From Kaistia sp. (GTDB lineage Bacteria > Pseudomonadota > Alphaproteobacteria > Rhizobiales > Kaistiaceae), in the NCBI GenBank assembly GCA_965227845.1, contig OZ245770.1:2715017-2779016 (forward strand): a stretch of DNA of 64,000 bases, in the 5' to 3' direction. The position numbers and the translations under genes were made by a program. The notes beneath the pieces are model-generated. The model was given only the letters and a program-made list of their open reading frames with translations, had not been told where the DNA came from and did not search any database. This document shows, one piece after another, positions 21,592 through 34,124 of this stretch. Numbering within the stretch: the stretch's first letter is position 1; every line of letters begins with the position of its first letter.

Positions 21592-22386
21592 GTGACCGTG
21601 ACGAAGACGGACGGCACGCCGCCTGAGCGATCGCGGCGCGGCATCACGGCGCTGATCGTCGCTGGCTGCTGCGCCGTGCTGCTGCTCGCCGGCCTCGGCG
21701 TCTGGCAATTGCAGCGCCGCGCCTGGAAGCTGGAACTCATCCAGCAGGTCGAGACGCGGGCCGACGCAGCGCCGGTCGCAGCGCCGGGACCCGACGAATG
21801 GCCGGCGCTGACGGCAGCGAACGACGCCTATCGCCGGGTCGTCGTCTCGGGCCGCTTCCTCAACGATCGCGAAACCCTCGTCCAGGCCGTCACCGAGCGC
21901 GGCGCCGGCTTCTGGGTGCTGACGCCGATGGCGACCGACTGGGGCTTCACCGTCCTGGTCAATCGCGGCTTCGTCCCGGCCGACCGGCGCGACGCCGCCA
22001 GCCGAACCGCCGGCCAGATCGAGGGTGACACGGCGCTCGCGGGCCTGCTCAGGATGCCGGAACCGGGGGGTGCATTTCTCCGCGCCAACGATCCCGCCGC
22101 CGATCGCTGGTATTCGCGAGATGTCGCGGCCATCGCGCAAGCAAGGGGTCTTACAGCCGTTGCGCCCTATTTCGTCGATGCCGACGCGACCGAGAACGAA
22201 GGCGGGCTGCCGATCGGCGGGCTCACCGTCATCCGCTTTCCCAACAACCACCTCGTCTATGCGCTGACCTGGTTCGCCATGGCGGCGCTGCTCGCCGGCG
22301 GCCTCGTCCATGTCATCAGGGCCGAACGGCGACGGTCGCATCCGGCCGCGCCGACCGAAACCAGCCCGGCCTCGCTCAACCGGTAA
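21592..22386 (+). CDS. SURF1 family protein
   Basis: LGVWQLQRRAWK, VNRGFVP, NNHLVYALTWF. Confidence 0.92.
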   Translation: MTVTKTDGTPPERSRRGITALIVAGCCAVLLLAGLGVWQLQRRAWKLELIQQVETRADAAPVAAPGPDEWPALTAANDAYRRVVVSGRFLNDRETLVQAVTERGAGFWVLTPMATDWGFTVLVNRGFVPADRRDAASRTAGQIEGDTALAGLLRMPEPGGAFLRANDPAADRWYSRDVAAIAQARGLTAVAPYFVDADATENEGGLPIGGLTVIRFPNNHLVYALTWFAMAALLAGGLVHVIRAERRRSHPAAPTETSPASLNR

Positions 22387-23122
22387 AGACGGTGGCGAGA
22401 TCGACCGGCGCCAGGGGCCGCTCGAGCAGCACGAGTTCGGATTCGATCTCGTCGATATGCTGCGCCATCGCGGCTGCGAAACCGTCGGCATCGCGGCGCT
22501 CGAGCAGATAGACCAGATGCTGGTGGCTGACATGCGAGCAGAGCTCGGCATTCGGCCGCTCATAGATCGCCGTGATCAGGGCCGAGCGCGACAGCAATTC
22601 CTCGACATAGCCGGTGAGCACGCTGTTGCCGGCGAGCCGTGCGATCAAGAGGTGGAAGTCGTGGCTGGTCTTCAGTTCGGTCCGACGATCGCCCCGCTGC
22701 TCGGCGCGTTGCTCACGCAGGATATGCGCCTTCAGCTGCTTGAGCGCGCGATCGTCGAGCGCTTCGACGACCTGCCGCGCCAGCGATACCTCGATCAGCC
22801 GCCGCGCGGCGAAAACCTCGCGGGCATCGCGGATCGAGGGCTGGGCGACGAAGGCGCCGCGATTGCGTTCGAGGGTCACGACACGGTCGCGCGCGAGATG
22901 CTGGAACACCGTGCGGATGCGGGCGCGGGTGACGCGGAAGATTTCGGCGAGCTGCTCCTCGGCGAGCTTGGTGCCGGGCGGCAGGCGGCGCTCGGCGATC
23001 GCGAGATGGATCGCGTCATAGACCCGCGTCTCGTCGTCCGGCTTCGTCCGGCGCGCCTTTCCGATCGCCGGCGGCGAGGCTGCCGGCTCTGCTTCGATGG
23101 GTTCGGCGCGCGAAGGGGGCAT
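22376..23122 (-). CDS. GntR family (FadR/FCD) transcriptional regulator
   Basis: RLPPGTKLAEEQLAEIFRVTRARIR wHTH, RGAFVA, HDFHLLIARLAGN FCD domain. Start set at ATG 23122, just after the upstream gene. Confidence 0.9.
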   Translation of the reverse strand: MPPSRAEPIEAEPAASPPAIGKARRTKPDDETRVYDAIHLAIAERRLPPGTKLAEEQLAEIFRVTRARIRTVFQHLARDRVVTLERNRGAFVAQPSIRDAREVFAARRLIEVSLARQVVEALDDRALKQLKAHILREQRAEQRGDRRTELKTSHDFHLLIARLAGNSVLTGYVEELLSRSALITAIYERPNAELCSHVSHQHLVYLLERRDADGFAAAMAQHIDEIESELVLLERPLAPVDLATVFTG

Positions 23123-23126
23123 GGAC

Positions 23127-24008
23127 CTAGACTGCGAGATCGGGACGGCCGTGAATGAATTCGGCGATTCGCCCGGGGGTGGTAAGCCAGCAATCATGCC
23201 GCCGCGCGGCGATATGGTCGAGGGCCCGCGACAGTGCCCTGAGGCGAAAGGGCTGGCCGGAAATGAAGGAATGCACGACCACAGCCATCACCAGCGGCTG
23301 ATCGCTGCTCGACGAGAGCATCTCGTCGAACTGGTCGATGATCATGCGCTCGAAATCGGTTGCGCTCGCCTGACGGCCGATCACCGTGCTGCTGTCGTTG
23401 AGCTCCAGCGCATAGGGGATATGCAGCAGCGGGCCGCGGGCTGTCGCGAGCCAGACCGGCTGGTCGTCCATGCCGAGATCGAGCACATAGCGATAGCCGG
23501 TCTCGACGAGCGATTCCGGCGTCGTCTCGGTGTGGGCGAGCCAGGGGCTCGACCAGCCGGCGGGCGGCGCGCCCTCGACGGCCGCGATGCGCGCGGCAAC
23601 GGCGGCGAGATAGGCGCGCTCGTCCTCTGCCGTGCGGCCGGCGAGCGTGTCGGAATTGGTGAGGCCATGGCCGACGATCTCCGCGCCCGCAGCGCGGGCA
23701 TGGTCCATCAGCGACGGAGCGTGATCATAGACCTCGGTGTTGAGCAGGATGGCGAGCGGGATGTCGTGCGCGGCAAAGCGGTCGATGAGGCGGAAGCCGC
23801 CGACGCGGTTGCCATAGTCGCGCCAGGAGGTGTTGGCGAAATCCGGCTTGCTGGCGCCGGGGAACAGATCCTCGGTGAGGCCCTCGCCGAAGACATATTC
23901 CTCGATGCCGAGCGCGAAATAGACCGCGAGGCGGGCGCCGTTCGGCCAGGCATAATCGGGCCGGCGCGTGATCGGCGCGTAGGCGTAGCGGGTCTGGCTG
24001 GTGAGCAT
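23127..24008 (-). CDS. Polysaccharide deacetylase (CE4) family, PuuE-like hydrolase
   Basis: WPNGARLAV, SWRDYGNRVG, EIVGHG, GWSSPW, DDQP, HSFISGQPFR. Confidence 0.85.
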   Translation of the reverse strand: MLTSQTRYAYAPITRRPDYAWPNGARLAVYFALGIEEYVFGEGLTEDLFPGASKPDFANTSWRDYGNRVGGFRLIDRFAAHDIPLAILLNTEVYDHAPSLMDHARAAGAEIVGHGLTNSDTLAGRTAEDERAYLAAVAARIAAVEGAPPAGWSSPWLAHTETTPESLVETGYRYVLDLGMDDQPVWLATARGPLLHIPYALELNDSSTVIGRQASATDFERMIIDQFDEMLSSSSDQPLVMAVVVHSFISGQPFRLRALSRALDHIAARRHDCWLTTPGRIAEFIHGRPDLAV

Positions 24009-24013
24009 GGCGA

Positions 24014-25525
24014 TCAGTTCCGGGAGGGATCGAGGCGGCGGTTGAAGCCGATATCGCGGGCATGCGCCTTCAGCACCATGGCGCGATAGGCCGGGGCCCA
24101 GTCGGCGGCTTCGCGCTCGGCGATGGCAAGCGCCGCGCGCTTTTCGGCGAAGATCGTGCGCGCCTCGGCCCGCAGCGCCTTTTCGTCGACTGTGGTGACG
24201 CGCTCGCCGTCATAGACGACGGCACCGGCGACCATGGTCAGGCGGACCGAGGATCCGTTCTCGCAATGGACGAGCTGGCGGCCGATATCGTTGAGCGGCG
24301 TAAAGGCGAGCGTATCGAGGTCGAGGATCGTCAGGTCGGCCAGGCGACCGGGCGCGATGGTGCCGAGCGTCTCCGCCGCGCCCATGGCGCGGGCGCCGCC
24401 GCGGATCAGGCAGTCGAGCACCTCATGTGCCTTCGGCCATACCGCGTAATCCGGATCGGTGAGCGTATGCAGCAGCGCCGCCGTCTTGGCGACCGCCCAC
24501 ATGTTGACCGCATCGTCGGCGATCGCCTCGTCGGTGCCGAGGCAGATCGGAATGCCGCGTTCCCTGAGGGCGCGGAACGGCATGATGCCGCTGCCGAGGC
24601 GAAGGTTGGAGATCGGATTATGCGCGACGACCGTCCCCGCATCGGCGATGAGGTCCATGTCGGCCTCGTCGATCCAGATGCCGTGGATGAGGTTCATCCG
24701 CTCCGACAGGAAGCCGAGATCGGCGGTGTAGCGCACCAGTGAGCGGCCGCCGAGTTTCTCGGTTCCGAGGACGCGCTGGACCTTGGTTTCGAGCATATGG
24801 GCGTAGAAAGGCAGGTCGTGCCGGCGCGAGAGGTCGTCGAGCGCCGCGAAGTAATCGAGCGAGACGCGCTGCGGCGCCGAGCAGGAGACCGCCGCCTTGA
24901 TCCGGCCGCCGGCACGGCCATGCCAGGTCGCGATCATCCGCTCATAGGCGGCGAGCAGCGCCTCGGCGCCGAATTCCGGCGGCGCGGCGAGGCGGGCCTT
25001 CTGCGCCGGGGTGACCAGATCGTCGATGAAGGGCAGCTTGCCGAGCTCGGGCATATCCGACTGGTCGAGCGCGAGCCGAGCGCGGATGCCGACATCCTCA
25101 TAGGCCTGGAACACCGCGTCGACGATCTCGGGCGTCGGATGCGGGACGAAGAAGGCATCGTCCTGGACCGCCGTGACGCCGCTCCTCAGCATTTCGAGCG
25201 CCGCCAGCATGGTCCGCACATAGGCCTCGCGCGGCGTCGGCAGCAGCGCCGCCAGCGACGGGCTCTCATAGAGCATGAAGACTTCGAGCGGCAGGCTGTC
25301 GAGCATGCCCTTCATGTGGTTGACGGGCGAATGGAAATGGGCGTTGACGAGGCCGGGCATGACCAGCCGGCCGCCGGCCGCGATGACGGTCTCGCCGGGA
25401 AGAGGGTCGAGCCTTTGCTCGACCGCGGCGATGCGGTCGCCGACGACGCGGATATCAGCGCGGCGCATCGAGACGCCGCCCTCGATCACGTCGAGAACCG
25501 CGCCGCCTTCGATCAAGATGCTCAT
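24014..25525 (-). CDS. Metal-dependent amidohydrolase (TRZ/ATZ / deaminase-like)
   Basis: MPGLVNAHFH, HMLET, LIHGIW, AHNPISNLRLGSG, LGTDE. Confidence 0.88.
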   Translation of the reverse strand: MSILIEGGAVLDVIEGGVSMRRADIRVVGDRIAAVEQRLDPLPGETVIAAGGRLVMPGLVNAHFHSPVNHMKGMLDSLPLEVFMLYESPSLAALLPTPREAYVRTMLAALEMLRSGVTAVQDDAFFVPHPTPEIVDAVFQAYEDVGIRARLALDQSDMPELGKLPFIDDLVTPAQKARLAAPPEFGAEALLAAYERMIATWHGRAGGRIKAAVSCSAPQRVSLDYFAALDDLSRRHDLPFYAHMLETKVQRVLGTEKLGGRSLVRYTADLGFLSERMNLIHGIWIDEADMDLIADAGTVVAHNPISNLRLGSGIMPFRALRERGIPICLGTDEAIADDAVNMWAVAKTAALLHTLTDPDYAVWPKAHEVLDCLIRGGARAMGAAETLGTIAPGRLADLTILDLDTLAFTPLNDIGRQLVHCENGSSVRLTMVAGAVVYDGERVTTVDEKALRAEARTIFAEKRAALAIAEREAADWAPAYRAMVLKAHARDIGFNRRLDPSRN

Positions 25526-26292
25526 GCGTGGTTCTCCAACGCAGCCGGTTCCGAAAAGCCGGCAAAGGGACCCGTGAAGACCTTAGCCAGCGGGCTCGCG
25601 TAGCTCGACCGCTTCGAGGTCGCGAGGCCGCAGCGCACCAACCCCTCCGCCATGGTGACGGCGACGGCGACGCCGTCGATCACGGGAACGCCGAGTTCCG
25701 CCGACAGCGCCGATGCGAGATGGCCGATGCCGGCGCAGCCGAGCACGATCGCCTCGGCGCCGTCCTGTTCGACGGCGAGCCGCGCCTGCACCGCGAGGGC
25801 ATCTGCCACTGCCGCTTCCTCGTCGGCGCCGAAGAGAACCGGCACGTCGATGGCACGGATCGGCAGCGAGCGGCCAGCGGCATCGAGACCCAGACTGCGC
25901 ACGACGCGATGGGCGTGGATTCGGGTGCGGGCCGGCAGCGTGACGATCGAGAAGGTCTCGGCCAGAAGCGCCGCCGCGAACAGCGCCGCTTCCGTCATGC
26001 CGACAACCGGGCCGCGCGCGATCTCGCGCGCCGCCGCAATGCCGGTGTCGCCGAAGCAGGCGATGACATAGCCGTCGATACCCTCGGCCTCGCCGCGCCG
26101 AACGGCCTCGACGACGCCGAGGGTCGCCACCGCGTCGTCGAGATGACACTCGACCGAGGGCACGCCGAAGGCCGGGGCGACGGTGGTGACCATCGTGCCG
26201 GCGGCTGCAACGGCCGCACCGGCCTGCTGGTCGGCGGCGCTGAAGGCTGCCGTCGTATTGGGATTGATGATCCGGATCTGCATCGAAGGCAT
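25522..26292 (-). CDS. Asp/Glu/hydantoin racemase family protein (allantoin/hydantoin racemase-like)
   Basis: IRIINPNTT, IACFGDTG and VLGCAG (two catalytic Cys), PVIDGV; GGGAGG SD. Confidence 0.9.
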   Translation of the reverse strand: MPSMQIRIINPNTTAAFSAADQQAGAAVAAAGTMVTTVAPAFGVPSVECHLDDAVATLGVVEAVRRGEAEGIDGYVIACFGDTGIAAAREIARGPVVGMTEAALFAAALLAETFSIVTLPARTRIHAHRVVRSLGLDAAGRSLPIRAIDVPVLFGADEEAAVADALAVQARLAVEQDGAEAIVLGCAGIGHLASALSAELGVPVIDGVAVAVTMAEGLVRCGLATSKRSSYASPLAKVFTGPFAGFSEPAALENHA

Positions 26293-26363
26293 CGCCTCCC
26301 GCTTCTTCTTGGTCTCGGGAACGCCCGCTCCCGCCGCGATCGCAGGGGAGCGGGCGGCAGGGG

Positions 26364-27560
26364 TCAGGCGTTCTTGAACTTCGCCACGGCGCCTTCGTAG
26401 TGCTCCATGCTCTTGAACCAGCCGGGATCCCAGAACAGGTCCTTGGCGAATTTGGTCCCGAGCTTGGCCTTGGCGCCCTCGATCGCGGCGATGTCGGTCT
26501 CTTTCCAGCCATGCGCCTTCGCATAGGCGATGCCGAGATCGGGCCGCGCGGTGACATAGCCTTCGAAGGCCGATTTTTCGGCGCTGTACTGGGCGCCCAT
26601 CAGGAAGTCGATCAGCGCATGTGCCTTGTCGGAGGCGCCGCGATCCATGACCTGGGCCGGGATCATGACGTTCTGGGCCCATTTGTCGTAGCCCTCGACC
26701 GTGTAGGCATAGGCGACGTCGAGGCCCTTGCCCTTGGCCTCGATCGCGGCTGGCTCCCAGCAGCTCTGCGCCAGCACTTCGCGATTGGCGAGCAGCTGAA
26801 CCTGCTCGTCATAGGACTTGTAGAGGGTGCGGAACTGGCCGGCCTTCTTGCGCTCGATCAGATAGGCGGCGACGGAATCGGCCTCGCTGGCCGACATGTC
26901 CGCGATGTCCTTGATCGAAACGATCTTGTGATAGTCGAGATAGATGGCGCAGCAGAGGATGGCGTAGATGCCGTTGTCGAGCGCGACCTTCCCCTTGGTC
27001 CGCTCGTCGTCATAGAGGATCTTCCACGACACCTCCTGCGGCGCGTCGGGCTCGCCGAGTTCCTTGTAGAAATAGGCGAAGCTGTCGGCGTTGATCATGA
27101 ACGGGATCGACCACGCCTCGCCCGGCGCCTTGAGCGGCGTCGCCTTCTGCAGCGCGGCGTCCATGCCGGACCAGTTGGTGAGCTTGGCGGTGTCGATCGG
27201 CGCCAGCAGGCCCTGGTCGGCCAGAGCCTCATAGGTTCCGGAGAGGCTGGTGACGAGGTCGTAGCGCTCGCCGGCATCGTTGGCCATCATCTCGTGCAGG
27301 AAGATGCCGACGTCGTCGCCGATCGGCGTCCACTCGACGGTGAGGCCGGTCTTGGCGGTGAACTCGTCCCAGCTCTTCGGCGGGCCGTTGGAGACGCCAA
27401 GGACGCGCACGACATTGTCCGAGCCATCGGCGGCCATCGCCCTGCCGATCGAGCGCGGCGCGAGCGTGAAGCCGGCCGCGGCCGCGCTCATCGCGAGGCC
27501 GGCATTCTTCATGAAGTCGCGGCGGTTGAAGCCGCGCTTCGGCATCCAGAGTTTCGACAT
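26364..27560 (-). CDS. ABC transporter substrate-binding protein (PotD/PotF-like) with Tat signal
   Basis: FNRRDFMK twin-arginine leader, AAGGAG SD, upstream of hydrolase genes in the ABC operon. Confidence 0.8.
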   Translation of the reverse strand: MSKLWMPKRGFNRRDFMKNAGLAMSAAAAGFTLAPRSIGRAMAADGSDNVVRVLGVSNGPPKSWDEFTAKTGLTVEWTPIGDDVGIFLHEMMANDAGERYDLVTSLSGTYEALADQGLLAPIDTAKLTNWSGMDAALQKATPLKAPGEAWSIPFMINADSFAYFYKELGEPDAPQEVSWKILYDDERTKGKVALDNGIYAILCCAIYLDYHKIVSIKDIADMSASEADSVAAYLIERKKAGQFRTLYKSYDEQVQLLANREVLAQSCWEPAAIEAKGKGLDVAYAYTVEGYDKWAQNVMIPAQVMDRGASDKAHALIDFLMGAQYSAEKSAFEGYVTARPDLGIAYAKAHGWKETDIAAIEGAKAKLGTKFAKDLFWDPGWFKSMEHYEGAVAKFKNA

Positions 27561-27615
27561 CGATCCCACTCCTTTGAGGTTCAGGCGGCCCCCCCGGCCG
27601 CGACTTGGATGGCGC

Positions 27616-28686
27616 TCAGGCATCGGTGCCGAGGGGGCCGATCACGGCCGCCTCGGATCGCCAGACCAAGCTGACGAGGTTGTCGGCCGGGGCTTCGGCC
27701 ATGGTCGCGACGACGGGGCCGAGCGCTGTATCGACGGTCACCTCGACCTCGGTGCCCTTGTAGATCGCGGCCGTGACCCGTCCGGCGAGAAGACCCTGCC
27801 CGACCGAGGGCTCGAGGCGGATCGCGCGCGGATGCAGCGCGAGAAAGCCGCGTGCGCCGATATGCGGCGCGGCGAGGCCGCACCAGCGGCCGGTGAAGCG
27901 ATGGCTGCCAACGGCGAGGACGACCGCATCGCCGGCAATCTCGATTACTTCGCCGGCAAATATCGTGCGGTGACCCATGAAATCGGCGACGAACCGTGTG
28001 GCCGGGCTCTCGAACACGTCGCGCGGGCTGCCGATCTGCTCGATCCTGCCGCGATTCATCACGACGATCCGATCGCTCATGGTCAGCGCCTCTTCCTGGC
28101 TGTGCGTTACCTGGATGAAGGTCGTGCCGAGGGTGCGCTGCAGGGCGCGGACCTCGACCTGCATGTCGCGGCGGAGCTTCTCGTCGAGCGCGCCCATCGG
28201 TTCGTCGAGCAGGAGGATGCGCGGTGCGGTGACGAAGGCGCGGGCGAAGGCGACGCGTTGCTTCTCGCCGCCCGAGAGCTGGCTGATCCGCCGCCCGGCC
28301 TTGTCCGGCAGGCGGACGAGGGCGAGCGACCGCTCGGCGCGCTGCCGCCGCTCGGCCGCAGCGACCTTGCGCAGCTTCAGGCCGTATTCGACATTCTCGC
28401 CGACGCTCATATGCGGAAACAGCGCGTAGTGCTGGAACACCGTAGCGACCGGCCGGTGGTTCGCCGGCAGGCCGCGCATGTCGACGCCACCGATCGAAAG
28501 TTCCGCTGCCGCCGAGGCTTCCTCGAAGCCGCCGATGAGGCGCAGCAGCGTCGTCTTGCCGGAGCCGGATGGCCCGAGAATGGTCAGGAATTCGCCGTCC
28601 GCCACGGTGAGCGAGACATGGTCGAGGGCGAGCGTACCGCCGAAGCGGTGGACGAGGTCGCGAATGGCGAGCGCCGGCTGGGTCAT
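27616..28686 (-). CDS. ABC transporter ATP-binding protein (PotA-like, TOBE domain)
   Basis: GPSGSGKTT, VFQHYALFPH, LSGGEKQR, LLDEPMGALD, VTHSQEEA. Confidence 0.93.
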   Translation of the reverse strand: MTQPALAIRDLVHRFGGTLALDHVSLTVADGEFLTILGPSGSGKTTLLRLIGGFEEASAAAELSIGGVDMRGLPANHRPVATVFQHYALFPHMSVGENVEYGLKLRKVAAAERRQRAERSLALVRLPDKAGRRISQLSGGEKQRVAFARAFVTAPRILLLDEPMGALDEKLRRDMQVEVRALQRTLGTTFIQVTHSQEEALTMSDRIVVMNRGRIEQIGSPRDVFESPATRFVADFMGHRTIFAGEVIEIAGDAVVLAVGSHRFTGRWCGLAAPHIGARGFLALHPRAIRLEPSVGQGLLAGRVTAAIYKGTEVEVTVDTALGPVVATMAEAPADNLVSLVWRSEAAVIGPLGTDA

Positions 28687-29576
28687 GGGGTCTCCTTGCC
28701 GCGGGCGGCGCGCGACAGCAGCAATACGGCGGCGACCGAGAGGGCGACGCTGACGGCTGCGACCAGGGTGTTGAGGCCGTAGATCAGCGGAATATGCGAG
28801 CTCTGGCCGGCAGCCTCGGCGAAGACGAAGAGCGGCAGCGTCATCGCTCCGCCGCGGATGAAGATCGAGCGCGGCAGTTCGGTCATCGACAAGAGGAAGC
28901 CGAACATCGCGGCCGAGACGATGCCCGGCATCAGCAGCGGCGCCTCGATATCGACGAAGGCGCGCCAGCGCGAGGCGCCGAGATCCGCGGCGGCCTCCAC
29001 CAGCGTGCGGTCGAAGCGCAGCGTCACCACCAGCATCGACAGCAGCGCGAACGGAAAGGCCCAGATGAAATGCGTCAGGATCAGCGACCAGATGCCGGGC
29101 CGGATGCCGAGCAGGCCGCGATAGGCAATGAATTCCTGCACGCCGAGCACGATGCCCGGGATGACCAGCGGCAGCAGGAACACGGCAAGGAGCCGGCCCT
29201 TCGAACGCCCGAGACGCGGCACGAGCCGGCCGACCAGCGTCGCCCCGGCCGCGGAGAGGAGCGCGACGACCAGCGCGATCATCACCGAGAGGCCGAGCGG
29301 CGCCAGCCAGCGGCGATCCTCGAACAATTGCTGATACCAGGCGAGCGTGAAGCCGCCCGGCGTTCCGCTGAGCGGATCGGCACTCACCGAGAGCACGCCG
29401 AGCAGGGCAACCGGCAGCGCGATCAGCAGCGTCACGCCGAGGCCGGCCGCGACCGCGAGCGCAGTGACAGAGCGCACCAGTCGCTGCTCGTGGAGGGCGG
29501 CGCGATGGGCGCGGTCGAGCCGGGGCACGGCCAGGTCGCTGGTGGCGTCGCTCGCAATCCCCTCGCGCGCCGTCAT
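28683..29576 (-). CDS. ABC transporter permease (PotC-like)
   Basis: FTLAWY, LVEAAADLGASRWRAF EAA loop. Confidence 0.9.
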   Translation of the reverse strand: MTAREGIASDATSDLAVPRLDRAHRAALHEQRLVRSVTALAVAAGLGVTLLIALPVALLGVLSVSADPLSGTPGGFTLAWYQQLFEDRRWLAPLGLSVMIALVVALLSAAGATLVGRLVPRLGRSKGRLLAVFLLPLVIPGIVLGVQEFIAYRGLLGIRPGIWSLILTHFIWAFPFALLSMLVVTLRFDRTLVEAAADLGASRWRAFVDIEAPLLMPGIVSAAMFGFLLSMTELPRSIFIRGGAMTLPLFVFAEAAGQSSHIPLIYGLNTLVAAVSVALSVAAVLLLSRAARGKETP

Positions 29577-30469
29577 GCTGCACTCCCGCGCCGCGCGAGG
29601 CGGCCGATCGCCAGCGGCGCCAGCGCCACCAAGGCGCCGAGCACCAACACGAAGGCCGAGAAGGCCGAGGCGCCGGCATAGTTCATCGTCGTCGACAGCG
29701 AGGTGACGCTGTCGGCGAGATATTCCTTCTTGCCGCCGCCGAGCAGATTGGTGGTGACGTTGTCGCCGAGGATGGGCACGAAGGTGAAGATGACGCCGGC
29801 GATGATGCCGGGGAGTGCCAGCGGCAGCATCACGGTGCGCAGCACCGCCGTCGGCGCAGCGCCGAGATCGCGGGCCGCGGCGACGAGGTCGCCATCGACG
29901 AGCACGACGGCCAGGAAGACCGGCCAGACCATATTGGGAAAGTAGCTGCCGACCAGCCCGAAGCCGACCGCGAAATCGGAGAACAGCAGCCAGTCGAGCG
30001 GGGCATCGACGAGGCCGAGCTTCAAGAGAGCGGTGTTGATGGCGCCGCTGTTGCCGAGAACGGCGCGCCAGACCAGCGTGCGCGCAGAAGGGTCGAGGAA
30101 GAACGGAACCGTCAGCGCCATCCAGACCAGTTGGTCGAGCCAGCGCGGCTTCCGCGCCTTGGCCATCCAGATGGCGAATGGAATGCCGACCAGCGCACAG
30201 ATCGCGGTGACCGCCGCCGCCATCGAAACGGTCCGCACCAGCACTTCCCAGCGGCCGGACTGGATGATGTCGGCATAGGCGTCGAGCGAGAAGGTCCAGT
30301 CGATCTGGACGCCGCGCATCTTTACCAGCGAGAAGACGAAGATCCCGGCCATCGGCACCAGCACGATCGCGATCCAGACGACCGTGAACAGCACGAAGGG
30401 GCCCCATTCGCCGAGGCGGGCGAGAAGGGGGGCAAGGACGCGACGAAGACTGGCGAGGGATGCGGCCAT
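29573..30469 (-). CDS. ABC transporter permease (PotB-like)
   Basis: LVAAARDLGA, LPLALPGIIAG, LLGGGK. Confidence 0.9.
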   Translation of the reverse strand: MAASLASLRRVLAPLLARLGEWGPFVLFTVVWIAIVLVPMAGIFVFSLVKMRGVQIDWTFSLDAYADIIQSGRWEVLVRTVSMAAAVTAICALVGIPFAIWMAKARKPRWLDQLVWMALTVPFFLDPSARTLVWRAVLGNSGAINTALLKLGLVDAPLDWLLFSDFAVGFGLVGSYFPNMVWPVFLAVVLVDGDLVAAARDLGAAPTAVLRTVMLPLALPGIIAGVIFTFVPILGDNVTTNLLGGGKKEYLADSVTSLSTTMNYAGASAFSAFVLVLGALVALAPLAIGRLARRGSAA

Positions 30470-30563
30470 GAGCTGCTCTCGTTGGAACGCAGACTCTAGA
30501 GCATGACGCATGCCAACCCATAATTCCTTCTTTCTTTCATGTGCTTACGATATACCGCTTCCG

Positions 30564-30599
30564 AGATTGTCGACAATCTAACGATGATTGGCGACAAAT
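30564..30599. promoter_or_regulatory. Putative GntR/FadR-type operator pair in the divergent ABC/argE region
   Basis: Perfect 16-bp palindrome AGATTGTCGACAATCT (30564-30579) and degenerate copy GATTGGCGACAAAT (30586-30599) in an AT-rich patch. Confidence 0.65.
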
Positions 30600-30708
30600 T
30601 ATGAGCAGGCTGCGCAGCCGATTGCCGTCTTTTTCCGCAGCCGCGAGAGCCCGGCGCCGGCTAGCATGGCGGCGCCTGCATGGTGGACGGCAGGGGAAGG
30701 AGACAAGG

Positions 30709-31863
30709 ATGGCGCGTGCGGACACGTTGGCGATGATCGAGCGCTTCATCTCCTTTCCGACGGTGAGCCGCGACAGCAACCTGCCGCTGATCGCCTTTGC
30801 GGCGGAGACGCTGCGGCAGGCGGGCGCGACGATCTCGCTGACGCATGACGCGACGCGGCAGAAGGCGAACCTTCTCGCCTGCCTCGGGCCGCGCGACCGG
30901 CCCGGCATCATCCTTTCCGGCCATTCGGATGTGGTCCCGGTCGAGGACCAGGTCTGGACCGGCGATCCCTTCCGCCTCGCCCGGCGCGACGGGCGCCTCT
31001 ATGGCCGCGGCGTCTGCGACATGAAGGGCTTTCTCGCGATCGCAACGGCGATGGCACCGCGGCTCGCCAGCGCCCGGCCCGATGTGCCGGTGATCCTCGC
31101 GATGTCCTATGACGAGGAGGTCGGTTGTCTCGGCGTCGGTGATCTCCTTGCGGATATCGGCCGCAGCCTGGCGTCGCCACGCGGCGCGATCGTCGGCGAG
31201 CCCTCTGAAATGCGCGTCGTCGCTGCGCACAAGGGCAAGATCGGCTGCCATGTCGACGTGCGCGGCCGCGCCGCCCATTCCTCGCTGTCGCAGCTCGGCG
31301 TCAATGCCGTCGAAGCGGCGGCCGAGGCGATCGGCTTCCTCACCACGCTCAAGCGGCAGTTCCGCGACGCCGGGCCGCATGATCCGGCCTTCAGCGATCC
31401 GGATCACACGACCATCGAGGCCTGCATGATCGAGGGCGGAACGGCGGTGAATGTCATCCCGAGCCGCTGCGGCTTCGACTTCGACGTGCGCAGCGTGCCC
31501 GGCAGCGATCCGGGCGCCGTCGTCGCCGCGCTTGAAGCGCATGTGCGGACCGTGATCGAACCGGCGCTGCAGGCAGTCGATCCAGAAACCGGCTTCACCT
31601 TCACGCGGATCCCCGGCTGCGCCGCCTTCCGCCAGGATGCCGATGCGCCGTTCGCGCGGATGGTACGCAGCGTCCTGCCGCCGCATCCGGTCGGTGCCGT
31701 GCCGTTCGGCACCGAGGCCGGACATTTTCGCGAAGCGGGGATCGCGACCCTCATCTGCGGCCCCGGCGCGATCGCCGAAGCACACCAGCCCGACGAATTC
31801 CTCGCCATCGATCAGGTGACGGCCTGCGAGGAGTTCCTCGAGGCGCTCTGGGCCGCCGCCTGA
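30709..31863 (+). CDS. M20 family hydrolase, acetylornithine deacetylase (ArgE)-like
   Basis: LSGHSDVVP, GRGVCDMKG, YDEEVGC, GEPS, AHKG, FGTEAG, AHQPDE. Confidence 0.88.
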   Translation: MARADTLAMIERFISFPTVSRDSNLPLIAFAAETLRQAGATISLTHDATRQKANLLACLGPRDRPGIILSGHSDVVPVEDQVWTGDPFRLARRDGRLYGRGVCDMKGFLAIATAMAPRLASARPDVPVILAMSYDEEVGCLGVGDLLADIGRSLASPRGAIVGEPSEMRVVAAHKGKIGCHVDVRGRAAHSSLSQLGVNAVEAAAEAIGFLTTLKRQFRDAGPHDPAFSDPDHTTIEACMIEGGTAVNVIPSRCGFDFDVRSVPGSDPGAVVAALEAHVRTVIEPALQAVDPETGFTFTRIPGCAAFRQDADAPFARMVRSVLPPHPVGAVPFGTEAGHFREAGIATLICGPGAIAEAHQPDEFLAIDQVTACEEFLEALWAAA

Positions 31864-31960
31864 GAGCCTCCCCGCGGTGGTCGTTCGCCCGGGCACACGC
31901 TATCTCATAGGGAGCCGCCGCAGCGCATGAACCGATCGAGGCGGGAGACGTTGAGCTGCC

Positions 31961-33118
31961 ATGAAAACGACCGCCGCCAGCCTCGCCCTTGCCGCAGCGA
32001 CAACCCTCGTCGCCGTCATGCCCGCCCTCGGCCAGACAGCGTCGGCCCCGGCCTCGATCAATGCCGGCGGCCGCGCGCCGAACCCGGACAAGCCTTTCAC
32101 CGCCAAGGCCGTCGCCGAATTCGACACGCCCTGGGCGCTCGCCTTCCTGCCTGACGGGAGGATGCTGGTCACCGAAAAGCCGGGACACCTGTTTCTCGTG
32201 ACACAGGACGGACGCAAGACACCGGTCGACGGCGTCCCGGCCGTGCTCGCCGAAGGTCAGAACGGTCTACTCGACATCGCGCCGGCACCCGGCTTTCGCA
32301 GCAGCCGGCTCGTCTACCTGACCTATGTCGAACCCGGCGCCGGCGGCGGCGCGCTGGTTCTCGCCCGGGCCAAGCTCGTGATCGCCGGGACGCGCTGCAA
32401 GCTCGACGACCGCGCCGTGCTCTGGCGCCAGACCCCTGCGGGAGGCGGCGGCCAGCCCGGCGGCATCATCGCCTTCGACCCGGCGGGCGAACATCTCTTC
32501 CTCACCGTCGGCGACCGGATGCGGCCGGCGAGCGCGCAGGACCCCGACCAGGCGCGCGGCAAGGTGCTTCGGCTGACGCTGGACGGCGCGATTCCTTCCG
32601 ACAACCCGCAGGCGAGCGCCGGCGGCATTCGCGGCGAGACTTGGTCCACGGGCCACCGCAACCCTTATGGACTTGCCTTCGCGCCGGATGGCACGCTCTG
32701 GCTCGACGAGATGGGGCCGCGCGGCGGCGACGAACTCAACCGGATCGAACCCGGCCTCAACTACGGCTGGCCTCTCGTCTCCAACGGCGACAACTACAAC
32801 GGCACGCCGATCCCGCGCCATGCGACGCGGCCGGATCTCGCCGCCCCAGTTCTCTATTGGACCCCGGTGATCGCGCCGGCGGGTCTCGCCTTCTACGAGG
32901 CGGGCTTGTTCCCGCAATGGCGTGGCTCGGCCTTCGTCGGCGGACTCGCCGCAACCGCTCTCGTCCGCATCGCTTTCACCGCGACGGGCGGCGCCGACGA
33001 AGCCGAGCGCTTCGACATGGGCGCCCGCATCCGGGATGTCGCTGTCGCGCCGGACGGTGCGCTCTGGCTGATCGAGGACGCCGATCCGGGCCGCCTCCTG
33101 CGCCTCACGCCGCGCTGA
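31961..33118 (+). CDS. PQQ-dependent sugar dehydrogenase (GSDH/YliI-like beta-propeller), exported
   Basis: Signal peptide, PWALAFLPDG, QNGLLDI, GHRNPYG, GGDELN, NYGWP. Confidence 0.9.
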   Translation: MKTTAASLALAAATTLVAVMPALGQTASAPASINAGGRAPNPDKPFTAKAVAEFDTPWALAFLPDGRMLVTEKPGHLFLVTQDGRKTPVDGVPAVLAEGQNGLLDIAPAPGFRSSRLVYLTYVEPGAGGGALVLARAKLVIAGTRCKLDDRAVLWRQTPAGGGGQPGGIIAFDPAGEHLFLTVGDRMRPASAQDPDQARGKVLRLTLDGAIPSDNPQASAGGIRGETWSTGHRNPYGLAFAPDGTLWLDEMGPRGGDELNRIEPGLNYGWPLVSNGDNYNGTPIPRHATRPDLAAPVLYWTPVIAPAGLAFYEAGLFPQWRGSAFVGGLAATALVRIAFTATGGADEAERFDMGARIRDVAVAPDGALWLIEDADPGRLLRLTPR

Positions 33119-33133
33119 TGACCCGCCGCTCGC

Positions 33134-33162
33134 TTGCGATTGTCTCGCGCGCGATCTATCTG
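33134..33162 (+). promoter_or_regulatory. sigma70-type promoter with internal palindrome for the OhrR-like gene
   Basis: TTGCGA-N17-TATCTG; TCGCGCGCGA palindrome at 33145-33154. Confidence 0.5.
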
Positions 33163-33168
33163 AAGACG

Positions 33169-33654
33169 ATGAGCGAGCGCAGCGATACGACCACCGAACG
33201 GACGGACGAGGCTCCATCCGACCTGCCAGGGCCGCTGACGCTCGACGACTATCTGTGCTTCGCCCTCTATTCGGCGAGCCATGCCTTCAGCAGGCTCTAC
33301 CGACCGATGCTCGACGCGATCGGCCTGACCTATCCGCAATATCTCGCGATGATCGTGCTCTGGCAGAACGACGGCCTCACCGTCGGCGCGCTGGGCGAGC
33401 GGCTGTTCCTCGAATCGAACACACTGACGCCGATGCTGAAACGGCTGGAAGCGCTCGGTTTCATCACGCGGCGGCGCGAGGCCGGCGACGAGCGCCAGGT
33501 CCTGGTGCGCCTGACTGAGCGCGGCCGCGCGCTCCAGGCCGAGGCGGCCGGTATTCCGGCCTGCGCCTTCGAGAAGATCGGGCTCGATCGCGACCAGGCG
33601 ATCGACCTCCTGACCAGCGTCGCGAGCCTGCGCGATCGTCTTCGGGCTGGCTGA
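33169..33654 (+). CDS. MarR family regulator, OhrR-like
   Basis: LDDYLCFALYSASH (reactive Cys), GLTYPQYL, LTPMLKRLE, DERQV. Confidence 0.88.
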   Translation: MSERSDTTTERTDEAPSDLPGPLTLDDYLCFALYSASHAFSRLYRPMLDAIGLTYPQYLAMIVLWQNDGLTVGALGERLFLESNTLTPMLKRLEALGFITRRREAGDERQVLVRLTERGRALQAEAAGIPACAFEKIGLDRDQAIDLLTSVASLRDRLRAG

Positions 33655-33722
33655 GGGCCGACGCTGTCGGCCGCACCGGCGCTTCCTATATATTGGCGAC
33701 ACGAGCTCAAGGAGAGGCCACC

Positions 33723-34124
33723 ATGCTGACGACGTCATTTCCGGTCACGCGGACCGACGAGGAATGGAAGCAGCTGCTGACGCCCGAGCAGTATCATGTG
33801 ATGCGCCAGCACGGCACTGAATATCCCGGCAGTTGCGCGCTGCTGCACGAGAAGCGGCCGGGGACATTCTCCTGTGCCGGCTGCGGTCAGGCGCTGTTCG
33901 CCGCCAATGGCAAGTTCGAGAGCGGCACGGGATGGCCGAGCTTCAACGACCCGATCGAGGGCGCGGTGGAGACCACGGTCGATCGCAGCCATGGCATGGT
34001 GCGCACCGAAGTTCACTGCGCCCAGTGCGGCAGCCATCTCGGCCATGTCTTCGACGACGGTCCGGCGCCGACCTATCTGCGCTACTGCATCAACGGCGTC
34101 GCGATGACGTTCGATCCGGCCTGA
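33723..34124 (+). CDS. msrB: Peptide-methionine (R)-S-oxide reductase
   Basis: GTEYP, CAGC...CAQC Zn sites, KFESGTGWPSF, HLGHVFDDGP, RYCING. Confidence 0.96.
   Translation: MLTTSFPVTRTDEEWKQLLTPEQYHVMRQHGTEYPGSCALLHEKRPGTFSCAGCGQALFAANGKFESGTGWPSFNDPIEGAVETTVDRSHGMVRTEVHCAQCGSHLGHVFDDGPAPTYLRYCINGVAMTFDPA

Follow-up and report, generated by a model that had tools for sequence, protein, structure and literature searches.

Which compound is taken up and degraded by the products of a nine-gene cluster in Kaistia sp., and by which enzymatic steps? The cluster lies at positions 22376-31863 of a 64,000-nucleotide stretch of contig OZ245770.1 (hereafter the window, in whose numbering positions are given), and it consists of eight co-directional genes on the minus strand and one divergent gene on the plus strand. 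The operon encodes an ATP-binding cassette (ABC) importer, a two-cysteine racemase, a metallo-amidohydrolase of the cog0402 family, a PuuE-like hydrolase with the fold of carbohydrate esterase family 4 (CE4) and a GntR regulator, and the divergent gene encodes an M20 metallohydrolase. On balance, we consider it likely that these genes serve the GntR-repressed catabolism of a small chiral nitrogen heterocycle carrying an exocyclic amino or imino group, by the series of steps proposed below. No published characterization or function of this gene combination or of the amidohydrolase-CE4 pair was found in the literature.

Genes were called by a frame-specific analysis of the G+C content at third codon positions together with a suffix-score gene caller, and the families of all nine window genes were assigned with Pfam and NCBIfam; raw open reading frame lists are full of antisense frames because the G+C content is 65-70%. 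The calls recovered every gene named in the original prediction, which had described a tightly coupled operon with a divergent M20 gene, and each of its family assignments was borne out by both databases. The junctions within the operon are tight and speak for translational coupling, with three overlaps of 4 bp (ATGA-type), two gaps of 4-5 bp and two gaps of 55-80 bp. The 11-bp overlap between the stops of the surf1 and gntR genes that had been pointed out earlier is present at 22376-22386. The M20 gene was likewise found where it had been placed, but the start assigned to it at 30541 is probably too far upstream, the ATG at 30709 having a good Shine-Dalgarno sequence.

The CE4-fold hydrolase belongs to a distinct PuuE-like subfamily and is not the allantoinase. 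It scores 103-107 bits against the PuuE model TIGR03212, which has a cut-off of 424.6, and 83 bits at about 28% identity against the PuuE structure 3CL6. The AlphaFold2 model of the protein (pLDDT 86.6) gave the PuuE group (1Z7A, 3CL6, 3RXZ, 3S6O) as the top Foldseek matches with a template modelling (TM) score of about 0.8, compared with about 0.5 for true deacetylases, whose Asp-His-His metal triad is missing from this enzyme. In the PuuE allantoinase, this metal site of CE4 enzymes is replaced by a Glu-His-Trp triad, to which a catalytic His259 is added (Ramazzina 2008, as cited in PMC11424739). The residues equivalent to the catalytic ones of PuuE, E36, H114 and H246, are invariant in 45 orthologues, while the position of the PuuE tryptophan is occupied by Asn118 in all 45 and the family's own invariant pocket residues differ from those of PuuE. 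An assignment as PuuE allantoinase was accordingly rejected on account of the score, the Trp to Asn exchange and the occurrence elsewhere in the same genome of a canonical PuuE, which reaches 536 bits against TIGR03212. The enzyme probably opens the ring of a cyclic ureide or cyclic amide, and probably does so without a metal.

The canonical PuuE gene (C1:4818116-4819006; L124:10189-11016) stands alone between aldehyde dehydrogenase and DJ-1/PfpI genes, with no ureide operon. Two more PuuE-like paralogues, in the regions C1:570000-589999 (L125) and C1:1750000-1769999 (L126), have scores of 327 and 265 bits, below the TIGR03212 cut-off, and there is a fragmentary PuuE-like match at 582614-583363. 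All three lie in long co-directional gene rows that may be further cyclic-amide clusters.

The racemase scores 145 bits against PF01177 (cut-off 31) and matches no NCBIfam equivalog. It is far nearer to allantoin racemase than to any other characterized member of its fold, with 203 bits and 46% identity to HpxA of Klebsiella pneumoniae (3QVJ), and its residues Cys76 and Cys183 align with the catalytic cysteines of HpxA, so both are kept. The amidohydrolase, which carries a C-terminal helix of about 45 amino acids, has the cog0402 signature of HxH, His, His and Asp metal ligands plus HxxE on a (beta/alpha)8 barrel, and its residues H63, H65, H243, E246, H281 and D332 are invariant in 16 orthologues. 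Its nearest structures, each about 25% identical, are AtzA, 3LNP, 4DZH, the isocytosine deaminase Vcz and TrzN, and its fold matches AtzA, TrzN and deaminases with TM scores of 0.75-0.8; adenosine/MTA deaminases are among these nearest structures. The protein stays below every NCBIfam equivalog cut-off (232 against 609 bits for the best model and 225 against 522 for the next), including those for 8-oxoguanine deaminase (195 against 532) and guanine deaminase (88 against 375). Assignments as an 8-oxoguanine, guanine, 5'-deoxyadenosine or MTA/SAH deaminase, as HutF or as a chlorohydrolase were all rejected because the scores are far under the cut-offs. Orthologues carry the public names 'MTA/SAH deaminase', '8-oxoguanine deaminase' and 'amidohydrolase family protein'; going by the model scores, the first two appear unsupported.

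Conservation was assessed in 80 loci from species-representative genomes, which were searched with the nine window proteins and in which genes were then called and clustered. The amidohydrolase gene was called in 75 of these loci, to which the cluster-based counts refer. A CE4 gene was found 1.1 to 1.3 kb downstream of the amidohydrolase in 67 of the 80 loci, which argues that the adjacency of the two genes is not due to chance, and gene calls placed it immediately next to the amidohydrolase in 59/75. Racemase-fold genes are present in 56/75 loci, mostly directly upstream of the amidohydrolase; 28 of 34 adjacent ones are of the two-cysteine type seen in the window, and the remainder are atypical and lack both cysteines. 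Homologues of the amidohydrolase number in the thousands, of which the closest 120 are 63-70% identical, and homologues of the amidohydrolase-CE4 pair occur in soil, plant-, lichen- and sea-associated bacteria.

The transporters encoded at the related loci are Dpp-type ABC systems (21 loci), TonB-dependent receptors (18), tripartite ATP-independent periplasmic (TRAP) systems (14), PotD-like ABC systems (12), NMT1-type ABC systems (8), polar-amino-acid ABC (PAAT) systems (5) and NCS1 permeases (4). Because the transporter family is exchanged while the enzyme core stays, we take the triad of racemase, amidohydrolase and CE4 hydrolase as the functional unit. For the same reason, the PotD-type receptor, which the original prediction had used as a clue to the substrate, is of no use for this purpose. 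The window's own importer shares only its general architecture with PotABCD. Its ATPase scores 352 bits against the PotA equivalog (cut-off 482) and its binding protein 35-42 bits against the PotD, PotF and YdcS models (cut-offs 580-725; 34.6 against 582 for PotD), and the genes follow the order permease, permease, ATPase and binding protein rather than potABCD. The best match of the binding protein in the PDB is 3TTL (61 bits), and its translation contains the twin-arginine translocation (Tat) motif RRDFMK.

The gene families with their intact catalytic residues, the insertion, the conserved neighbourhood of the core genes and the association of regulator and motif are observations. In the route that we propose, by contrast, how the steps are ordered, what the M20 enzyme does and to which class the substrate belongs follow from the chemistry of the respective families. 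The ABC system would import the compound, whereupon the cog0402 amidohydrolase would exchange the exocyclic nitrogen for oxygen, by deamination or by release of an N-alkylamine, to give a hydantoin-type ring; deaminases and AtzB/AtzC-type enzymes are precedents for this step. The two-cysteine racemase would interconvert the C5 enantiomers, and the PuuE-like enzyme would open one of them to an N-carbamoyl (ureido) acid, from which, in this island, the ArgE-like M20 enzyme would take off the carbamoyl or acyl group. The GntR protein would bind two boxes of the TTGTnnACAA type that lie between operon and M20 gene, and the ligand that frees it would be the substrate or an intermediate. For the substrate class, the simplest fit is a 5-substituted 2-imino- or amino-hydantoin, that is, a 'glycocyamidine-type' cyclic ureide, since it needs all three core enzymes. 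Guanidinohydantoin/iminoallantoin would be one special case and arginine-derived hydroimidazolones another, guanidinohydantoin being a guess. A route from 2-aminothiazoline-4-carboxylate (ATC) to cysteine was considered and dropped, as the literature gave no link between ATC hydrolase, which is a separate protein family and not a CE4 enzyme, and this cluster. The pterin/lumazine pathway was also rejected, as it uses other enzymes (PMC12391406).

Several observations weigh against this proposal. No characterized enzyme is more than about 25% identical to the amidohydrolase, which could, by analogy with the action of HutF on an open-chain amidine, act after ring opening. The racemase-fold partner lacks both cysteines in several lineages, and at least eight loci have the amidohydrolase beside a second cog0402 paralogue and without the CE4 gene. 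The M20 enzyme is ArgE-like rather than carbamoylase-like and has an orthologue in only one of the 80 loci (L074). The ring need not be a hydantoin, because cyclic imidases are also found among PuuE-like enzymes (PMC11424739, PMC9304392). Finally, FrlB/FrlD-like SIS and PfkB genes beside the module in other genomes hint at sugar-conjugated substrates, which fall outside the simple scheme.

These sugar-related genes belong to a setting found at about one third of the loci, in which the module is accompanied by a DeoR regulator, two GlmS/FrlB-like SIS proteins and a PfkB kinase (FrlB/FrlD-like). The setting includes the closest CE4 relatives, from Devosia and Aureimonas, and suggests that some lineages may take up a sugar-conjugated or Amadori-type form of the substrate. 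SIS, PfkB and DeoR genes are not among the genes of the window's island. Genes of the ureide, hydantoin or pyrimidine type also recur beside the module and speak for the proposal. Among the related loci, the module is neighboured by AllC-like carbamoylases (8 loci), dihydropyrimidinase (8), a 2-oxoglutarate (2OG) oxygenase (7), an AtzD/TrzD ring-opening amidohydrolase (5) or a CN-hydrolase (4), and at further loci by an NCS1 permease, a nucleoside hydrolase or a PuuE-like paralogue.

The closest CE4 relatives, with 72-77% identity, come from GCA_038209775.1 (L127), Devosia psychrophila (L128) and Aureimonas sp. (L129). Their clusters contain a second CE4 paralogue, an amidohydrolase homologue of 49-51% identity, BtpA, SIS, PfkB, DeoR and a Dpp-type ABC system, and look like a sugar-linked version of the pathway. 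In a metagenome-assembled genome of Lichenihabitans (L088:12549-17631), the triad is directly followed by an Amdase-like protein, a CN-hydrolase, an amidase-signature enzyme and a second cog0402 paralogue (38% identical), after which a Bmp-type nucleoside ABC system is encoded.

The regulator is of the FadR/FCD type, as both an N-terminal GntR winged helix-turn-helix and an FCD domain were found by Pfam and a matching palindrome is present in the promoter region; operators of this subfamily have a consensus of the palindromic type t.GT.n.AC.a. The intergenic region of about 200 bp between the operon and the M20 gene is AT-rich and contains the perfect palindrome ATTGTCGACAAT at 30566-30577 as a candidate operator. 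A second candidate box, ATTGGCGACAAA at 30587-30598, follows 21 bp on, or about two helical turns. At the related loci, the regulator is either an orthologous GntR (23 loci) or a DeoR protein (22 loci). GntR orthologues were called in 23 of the 75 loci, and with tblastn matches included 26 of the 80 loci are GntR-positive. The motif TTGTnnACAA occurs in 23 of these 26 loci compared with 6 of the 54 without GntR (Fisher p = 1.3e-11). Over all 80 loci, 44 of the 45 sites are intergenic, and nearly all are situated in the promoter region beside module genes, in most cases in front of the operon's first gene, irrespective of whether this encodes a permease, DctP, a TonB receptor, a 2OG oxygenase, the racemase or the amidohydrolase. 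The window's arrangement, with a box between the M20 and permease genes, recurs at the locus L087. Comparison of the loci thereby gives good support to the control of the module, and in the window also of the M20 gene, by GntR. An Rfam scan of 22000-32200 returned no riboswitch or leader, a sigma-70 promoter scan found nothing, and terminator-like matches were at chance level.

The nine-gene block of this soil bacterium is an insertion, probably acquired horizontally. When 21 other genomes from the genus were searched in full, they revealed no orthologue of the CE4 hydrolase (best match 34% identity) and none of the M20 enzyme (best match 44% identity, in six genomes). When the region after the cyo-linked surf1 was compared, an empty site was seen in four congeners, which provides direct evidence for the inserted block proposed in the original prediction. 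All four carry an unbroken mfs-cyoABCD-surf1-gsdh-marR-msrB-hlyD-acrB-ggdef order with 70-98% protein identity, and in each of them the sugar dehydrogenase gene begins within about 200 bp of surf1. According to blastn, DNA homology to the congeners ends at about 22356 and restarts at about 31882, and the insert is therefore about 9.5 kb long and contains exactly the eight-gene operon and the M20 gene, between surf1 and the sugar dehydrogenase gene.

The final ten or so codons of surf1 (window 22357-22386) come from the inserted DNA and are unlike those of the congeners. Consequently, the native C-terminus of this cytochrome-oxidase assembly factor has been replaced, while GntR is native to the insert, its C-terminal part being homologous to that of its orthologues. 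The ends of the island were examined for a target-site duplication, but none was convincing; an 11-14-mer common to both was rejected, since it is not significant and its left copy lies within the native GntR coding sequence. The inserted block has no integrase, insertion sequence element or tRNA. In plasmid records, CE4 relatives were only distant (at most 50% identity) and in other contexts. One of them, with 47% identity, is present on the Polaromonas plasmid pE10SP1 from an Antarctic glacier (L130), where its neighbours encode an NTF2-like protein, a racemase, an ABC importer, an AtzD/TrzD 'ring-opening amidohydrolase', ureidoglycolate lyase, an RpiR regulator and dihydropyrimidinase. The right flank of the island (32018-34124), with genes for a soluble glucose/sorbosone dehydrogenase, MarR and MsrB, is conserved in the congeners and unrelated to the island. 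The features of the locus are collected in Table 1.

Table 1. Genes and other features of the Kaistia sp. island, in window coordinates.
Feature	Position	Strand	Family assignment or remark
ABC permease 1, 312 aa	29573-30511	-	BPD_transp_1; first gene of the operon; alternative starts 30470 and 30394
ABC permease 2, 297 aa	28683-29576	-	BPD_transp_1; 4-bp overlap at each end
PotA-like ABC ATPase with TOBE domain, 356 aa	27616-28686	-	Pfam ABC_tran, TOBE_2
Tat-exported binding protein, 398 aa	26364-27560	-	SBP_bac_8 (Pfam); distantly PotD/PotF-like
Two-cysteine hydantoin/allantoin-type racemase, 253-256 aa	25522-26292	-	PF01177
cog0402 (TRZ/ATZ / deaminase-type) metallo-amidohydrolase, 503 aa	24014-25525	-	Pfam Amidohydro_1
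PuuE-like CE4-fold hydrolase, 293 aa	23127-24008	-	Polysacc_deac_1
GntR/FCD (FadR-type) regulator, 248 aa	22376-23122	-	Pfam GntR and FCD; alternative start 23197 would overlap the CE4 gene
ArgE-like M20 metallohydrolase, 384 aa	30709-31863	+	NCBIfam acetylornithine deacetylase models
Two candidate GntR operators	30566-30598	.	TTGTnnACAA-type boxes in the divergent promoter region
Island limits, about 9.5 kb	22357-31881	.	End of DNA homology to the empty site of the congeners

The M20 enzyme passes the NCBIfam cut-offs for acetylornithine deacetylase (PRK07522, 457 against 412 bits; TIGR01892, 358.7 against 297.7 bits), and its best match in the PDB is E. coli ArgE 7RSF. It is therefore possible, though we hold it to be doubtful, that the enzyme is an ArgE-type deacetylase that stands outside the pathway and was merely carried along with the operon. 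An orthologue (52% identity) was found only at L074/L087, in a Mesorhizobium metagenome-assembled genome with the gene order of the window, and is missing at 79 of the 80 loci; any decarbamoylase-type neighbour occurs in about 12 of the 80, so that most loci are without a nearby candidate for this step. On the other hand, the gene is part of the 9.5-kb insertion, and the 21 congeners are without an orthologue, which indicates that it was acquired together with the operon and is not the housekeeping ArgE. Moreover, the M20 gene of L087, the nearest syntenic relative, is likewise divergent from the first permease gene and shares the box described above, and genes for ArgE/DapE-type M20 enzymes come after the amidohydrolase-CE4 pair in L027, L040 and L058. 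We thus regard the M20 enzyme as the probable N-acyl or N-carbamoyl hydrolase of this island and, judging from its distribution, as an accessory rather than a core step. The complete route from uptake to final hydrolysis that had been proposed for the cluster is supported only in part: the M20 gene was co-acquired and shares the operator-bearing promoter region, but an orthologue occurs in only one of 80 loci.

A second alternative, which appears unlikely, concerns the ring itself: it could be a cyclic imide, a dihydropyrimidine or a lactam, with the CE4 enzyme acting as an imidase on an imide that the amidohydrolase forms from a cyclic amidine, and with the racemase setting an alpha-stereocentre. 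Glutarimide- or succinimide-type rings are hydrolysed by BpIH, HxnM and the P. putida cyclic imidase, all of the PuuE family (PMC11424739, PMC9304392). The neighbours of the module at other loci point in the same direction, as they include DIOX_N/2OG-FeII_Oxy oxygenases, barbiturase-like AtzD/TrzD proteins, dihydropyrimidinase and nucleoside hydrolase. HxnY is an oxygenase of this DIOX_N/2OG-FeII_Oxy type, and its closest structural homologue is thymine-7-hydroxylase (PMC9304392). However, none of these neighbour genes is present in the window's island, and the racemase, with its 203 bits to HpxA, is much nearer to allantoin racemase than to the other characterized members of its fold.

The kinship of the racemase to HpxA also raises the question whether the island is an ordinary allantoin utilization unit, in which racemase and a PuuE-type allantoinase work together as in hpxA/hpxB and the amidohydrolase is an accessory purine deaminase acting on guanine or 8-oxoguanine. 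The PuuE fold and the catalytic Glu and His residues of the CE4 enzyme would agree with such a unit, as would the genes for allantoate-amidohydrolase-like and PuuE-like proteins that come after the pair in two Rhodospirillales loci. We nevertheless judge it to be quite improbable, since the CE4 enzyme remains far below the PuuE cut-off with the triad Trp always replaced by Asn, the genome has its canonical PuuE elsewhere, and the amidohydrolase is under the cut-offs for both purine deaminases. Furthermore, neither the nine island genes nor the flanks encode an allantoate amidohydrolase or allantoicase, a ureidoglycine aminohydrolase or a ureidoglycolate lyase or dehydrogenase. The mismatch with the standard allantoin pathway noted in the original prediction is thereby substantiated.

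A system for uptake and deacetylation of polyamines or acetyl-polyamines, as might be read from the PotA-like ATPase, the distantly PotD/PotF-like binding protein and the label 'deacetylase', is highly improbable, since the binding protein, with about 35 bits, stays far from the PotD/PotF cut-offs near 600, TRAP, Dpp, PAAT, NMT1, NCS1 or TonB systems accompany this enzyme core at other loci, and the CE4 enzyme has no Asp-His-His metal triad of true deacetylases.

Beyond the catabolism of a chiral nitrogen heterocycle proposed here, the triad might represent an undescribed and widespread 'imino-hydantoin pathway' that recovers nitrogen from damaged guanidino compounds by the logic of the creatinine pathway with non-homologous enzymes. 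We offer this as a speculative extension with little probability of being correct as a whole. Candidate compounds would be guanidinohydantoin/iminoallantoin, giving allantoin-like ureides, and hydroimidazolone glycation products derived from arginine; the latter idea would account for the FrlB/FrlD-like deglycase and kinase genes that flank the module in about one third of the loci. Knowledge of the substrate would put right a large body of annotation whose terms are at present generic or probably mistaken ('polysaccharide deacetylase', 'MTA/SAH deaminase', '8-oxoguanine deaminase'), and it could bring to light a bacterial route for recycling a class of nitrogen heterocycles, which may be products of guanine or arginine damage. 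The strain is a convenient test case, since the 9.5-kb insertion is clean and missing from 21 congeners, an operator is predicted and the island's dedicated binding protein lends itself to ligand screening.

Among known systems, the creatinine deaminase pathway leads from creatinine through N-methylhydantoin and N-carbamoylsarcosine to sarcosine. By analogy, the chemistry proposed for the island would also lead from a 2-imino-imidazolidinone by deamination to a hydantoin, followed by ring opening and loss of the carbamoyl group. The enzymes are non-homologous, however, as the PuuE-like ring opener and the M20 enzyme of the island stand in place of the ATP-dependent N-methylhydantoinase and the isochorismatase-type amidase of the creatinine route, and the racemase implies a chiral C5, which creatinine lacks. 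Classical hyu operons encode a hydantoin racemase, a hydantoinase, an N-carbamoyl-amino-acid amidohydrolase and an NCS1 permease. They resemble the island in combining racemase, ring hydrolase, decarbamoylase and a dedicated importer, in their case for 5-substituted hydantoins. In contrast to the island, their ring hydrolase is of the dihydropyrimidinase or HyuA/B type and not a CE4 enzyme, their carbamoylase is an AllC-like M20 enzyme or a CN-hydrolase, and they have no deaminase.

Closer in its enzymes is the system of Klebsiella hpxA/hpxB and Pseudomonas PuuE, where a two-cysteine racemase is likewise paired with a PuuE-fold hydrolase keeping Glu, His and His, and where a cyclic ureide is racemized before one enantiomer is opened; the allantoin racemase HpxA acts with the PuuE-type HpxB (PMC13751858). 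The island differs in the cog0402 amidohydrolase gene that separates racemase and CE4 genes, in the separate CE4 subfamily with its Trp to Asn exchange and in lacking urate and allantoate enzymes. In the breakdown of iprodione by Paenarthrobacter (IpaH, DdaH, DuaH), the CE4 'deacetylase' DdaH opens a hydantoin ring, and the M20 enzyme DuaH then cleaves the ureido acid (PMC12927932). The likeness to the island lies in a ring opener annotated as polysaccharide deacetylase together with an M20 enzyme, whereas the iprodione substrate is xenobiotic, the first step falls to an amidase and not to a cog0402 protein, and the route needs no racemase. The cyclic imidases of the PuuE family (BpIH, HxnM and CIH293 of P. 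putida) share the fold and the length of about 293 amino acids with the CE4 enzyme. They are reported or modelled to hydrolyse small cyclic imides or amides with the metal-independent Glu-His-Trp site of PuuE, and HxnM is reported to be 64% identical to the P. putida imidase (PMC11424739, PMC9304392). BpIH, which is about 61% identical to PuuE, keeps Glu-His-Trp, whereas the CE4 family of the island has Asn at the Trp position and invariant pocket residues of its own. Seen beside these systems, the island is a variant of the known type of cluster that combines a racemase, a ring hydrolase and a decarbamoylase.

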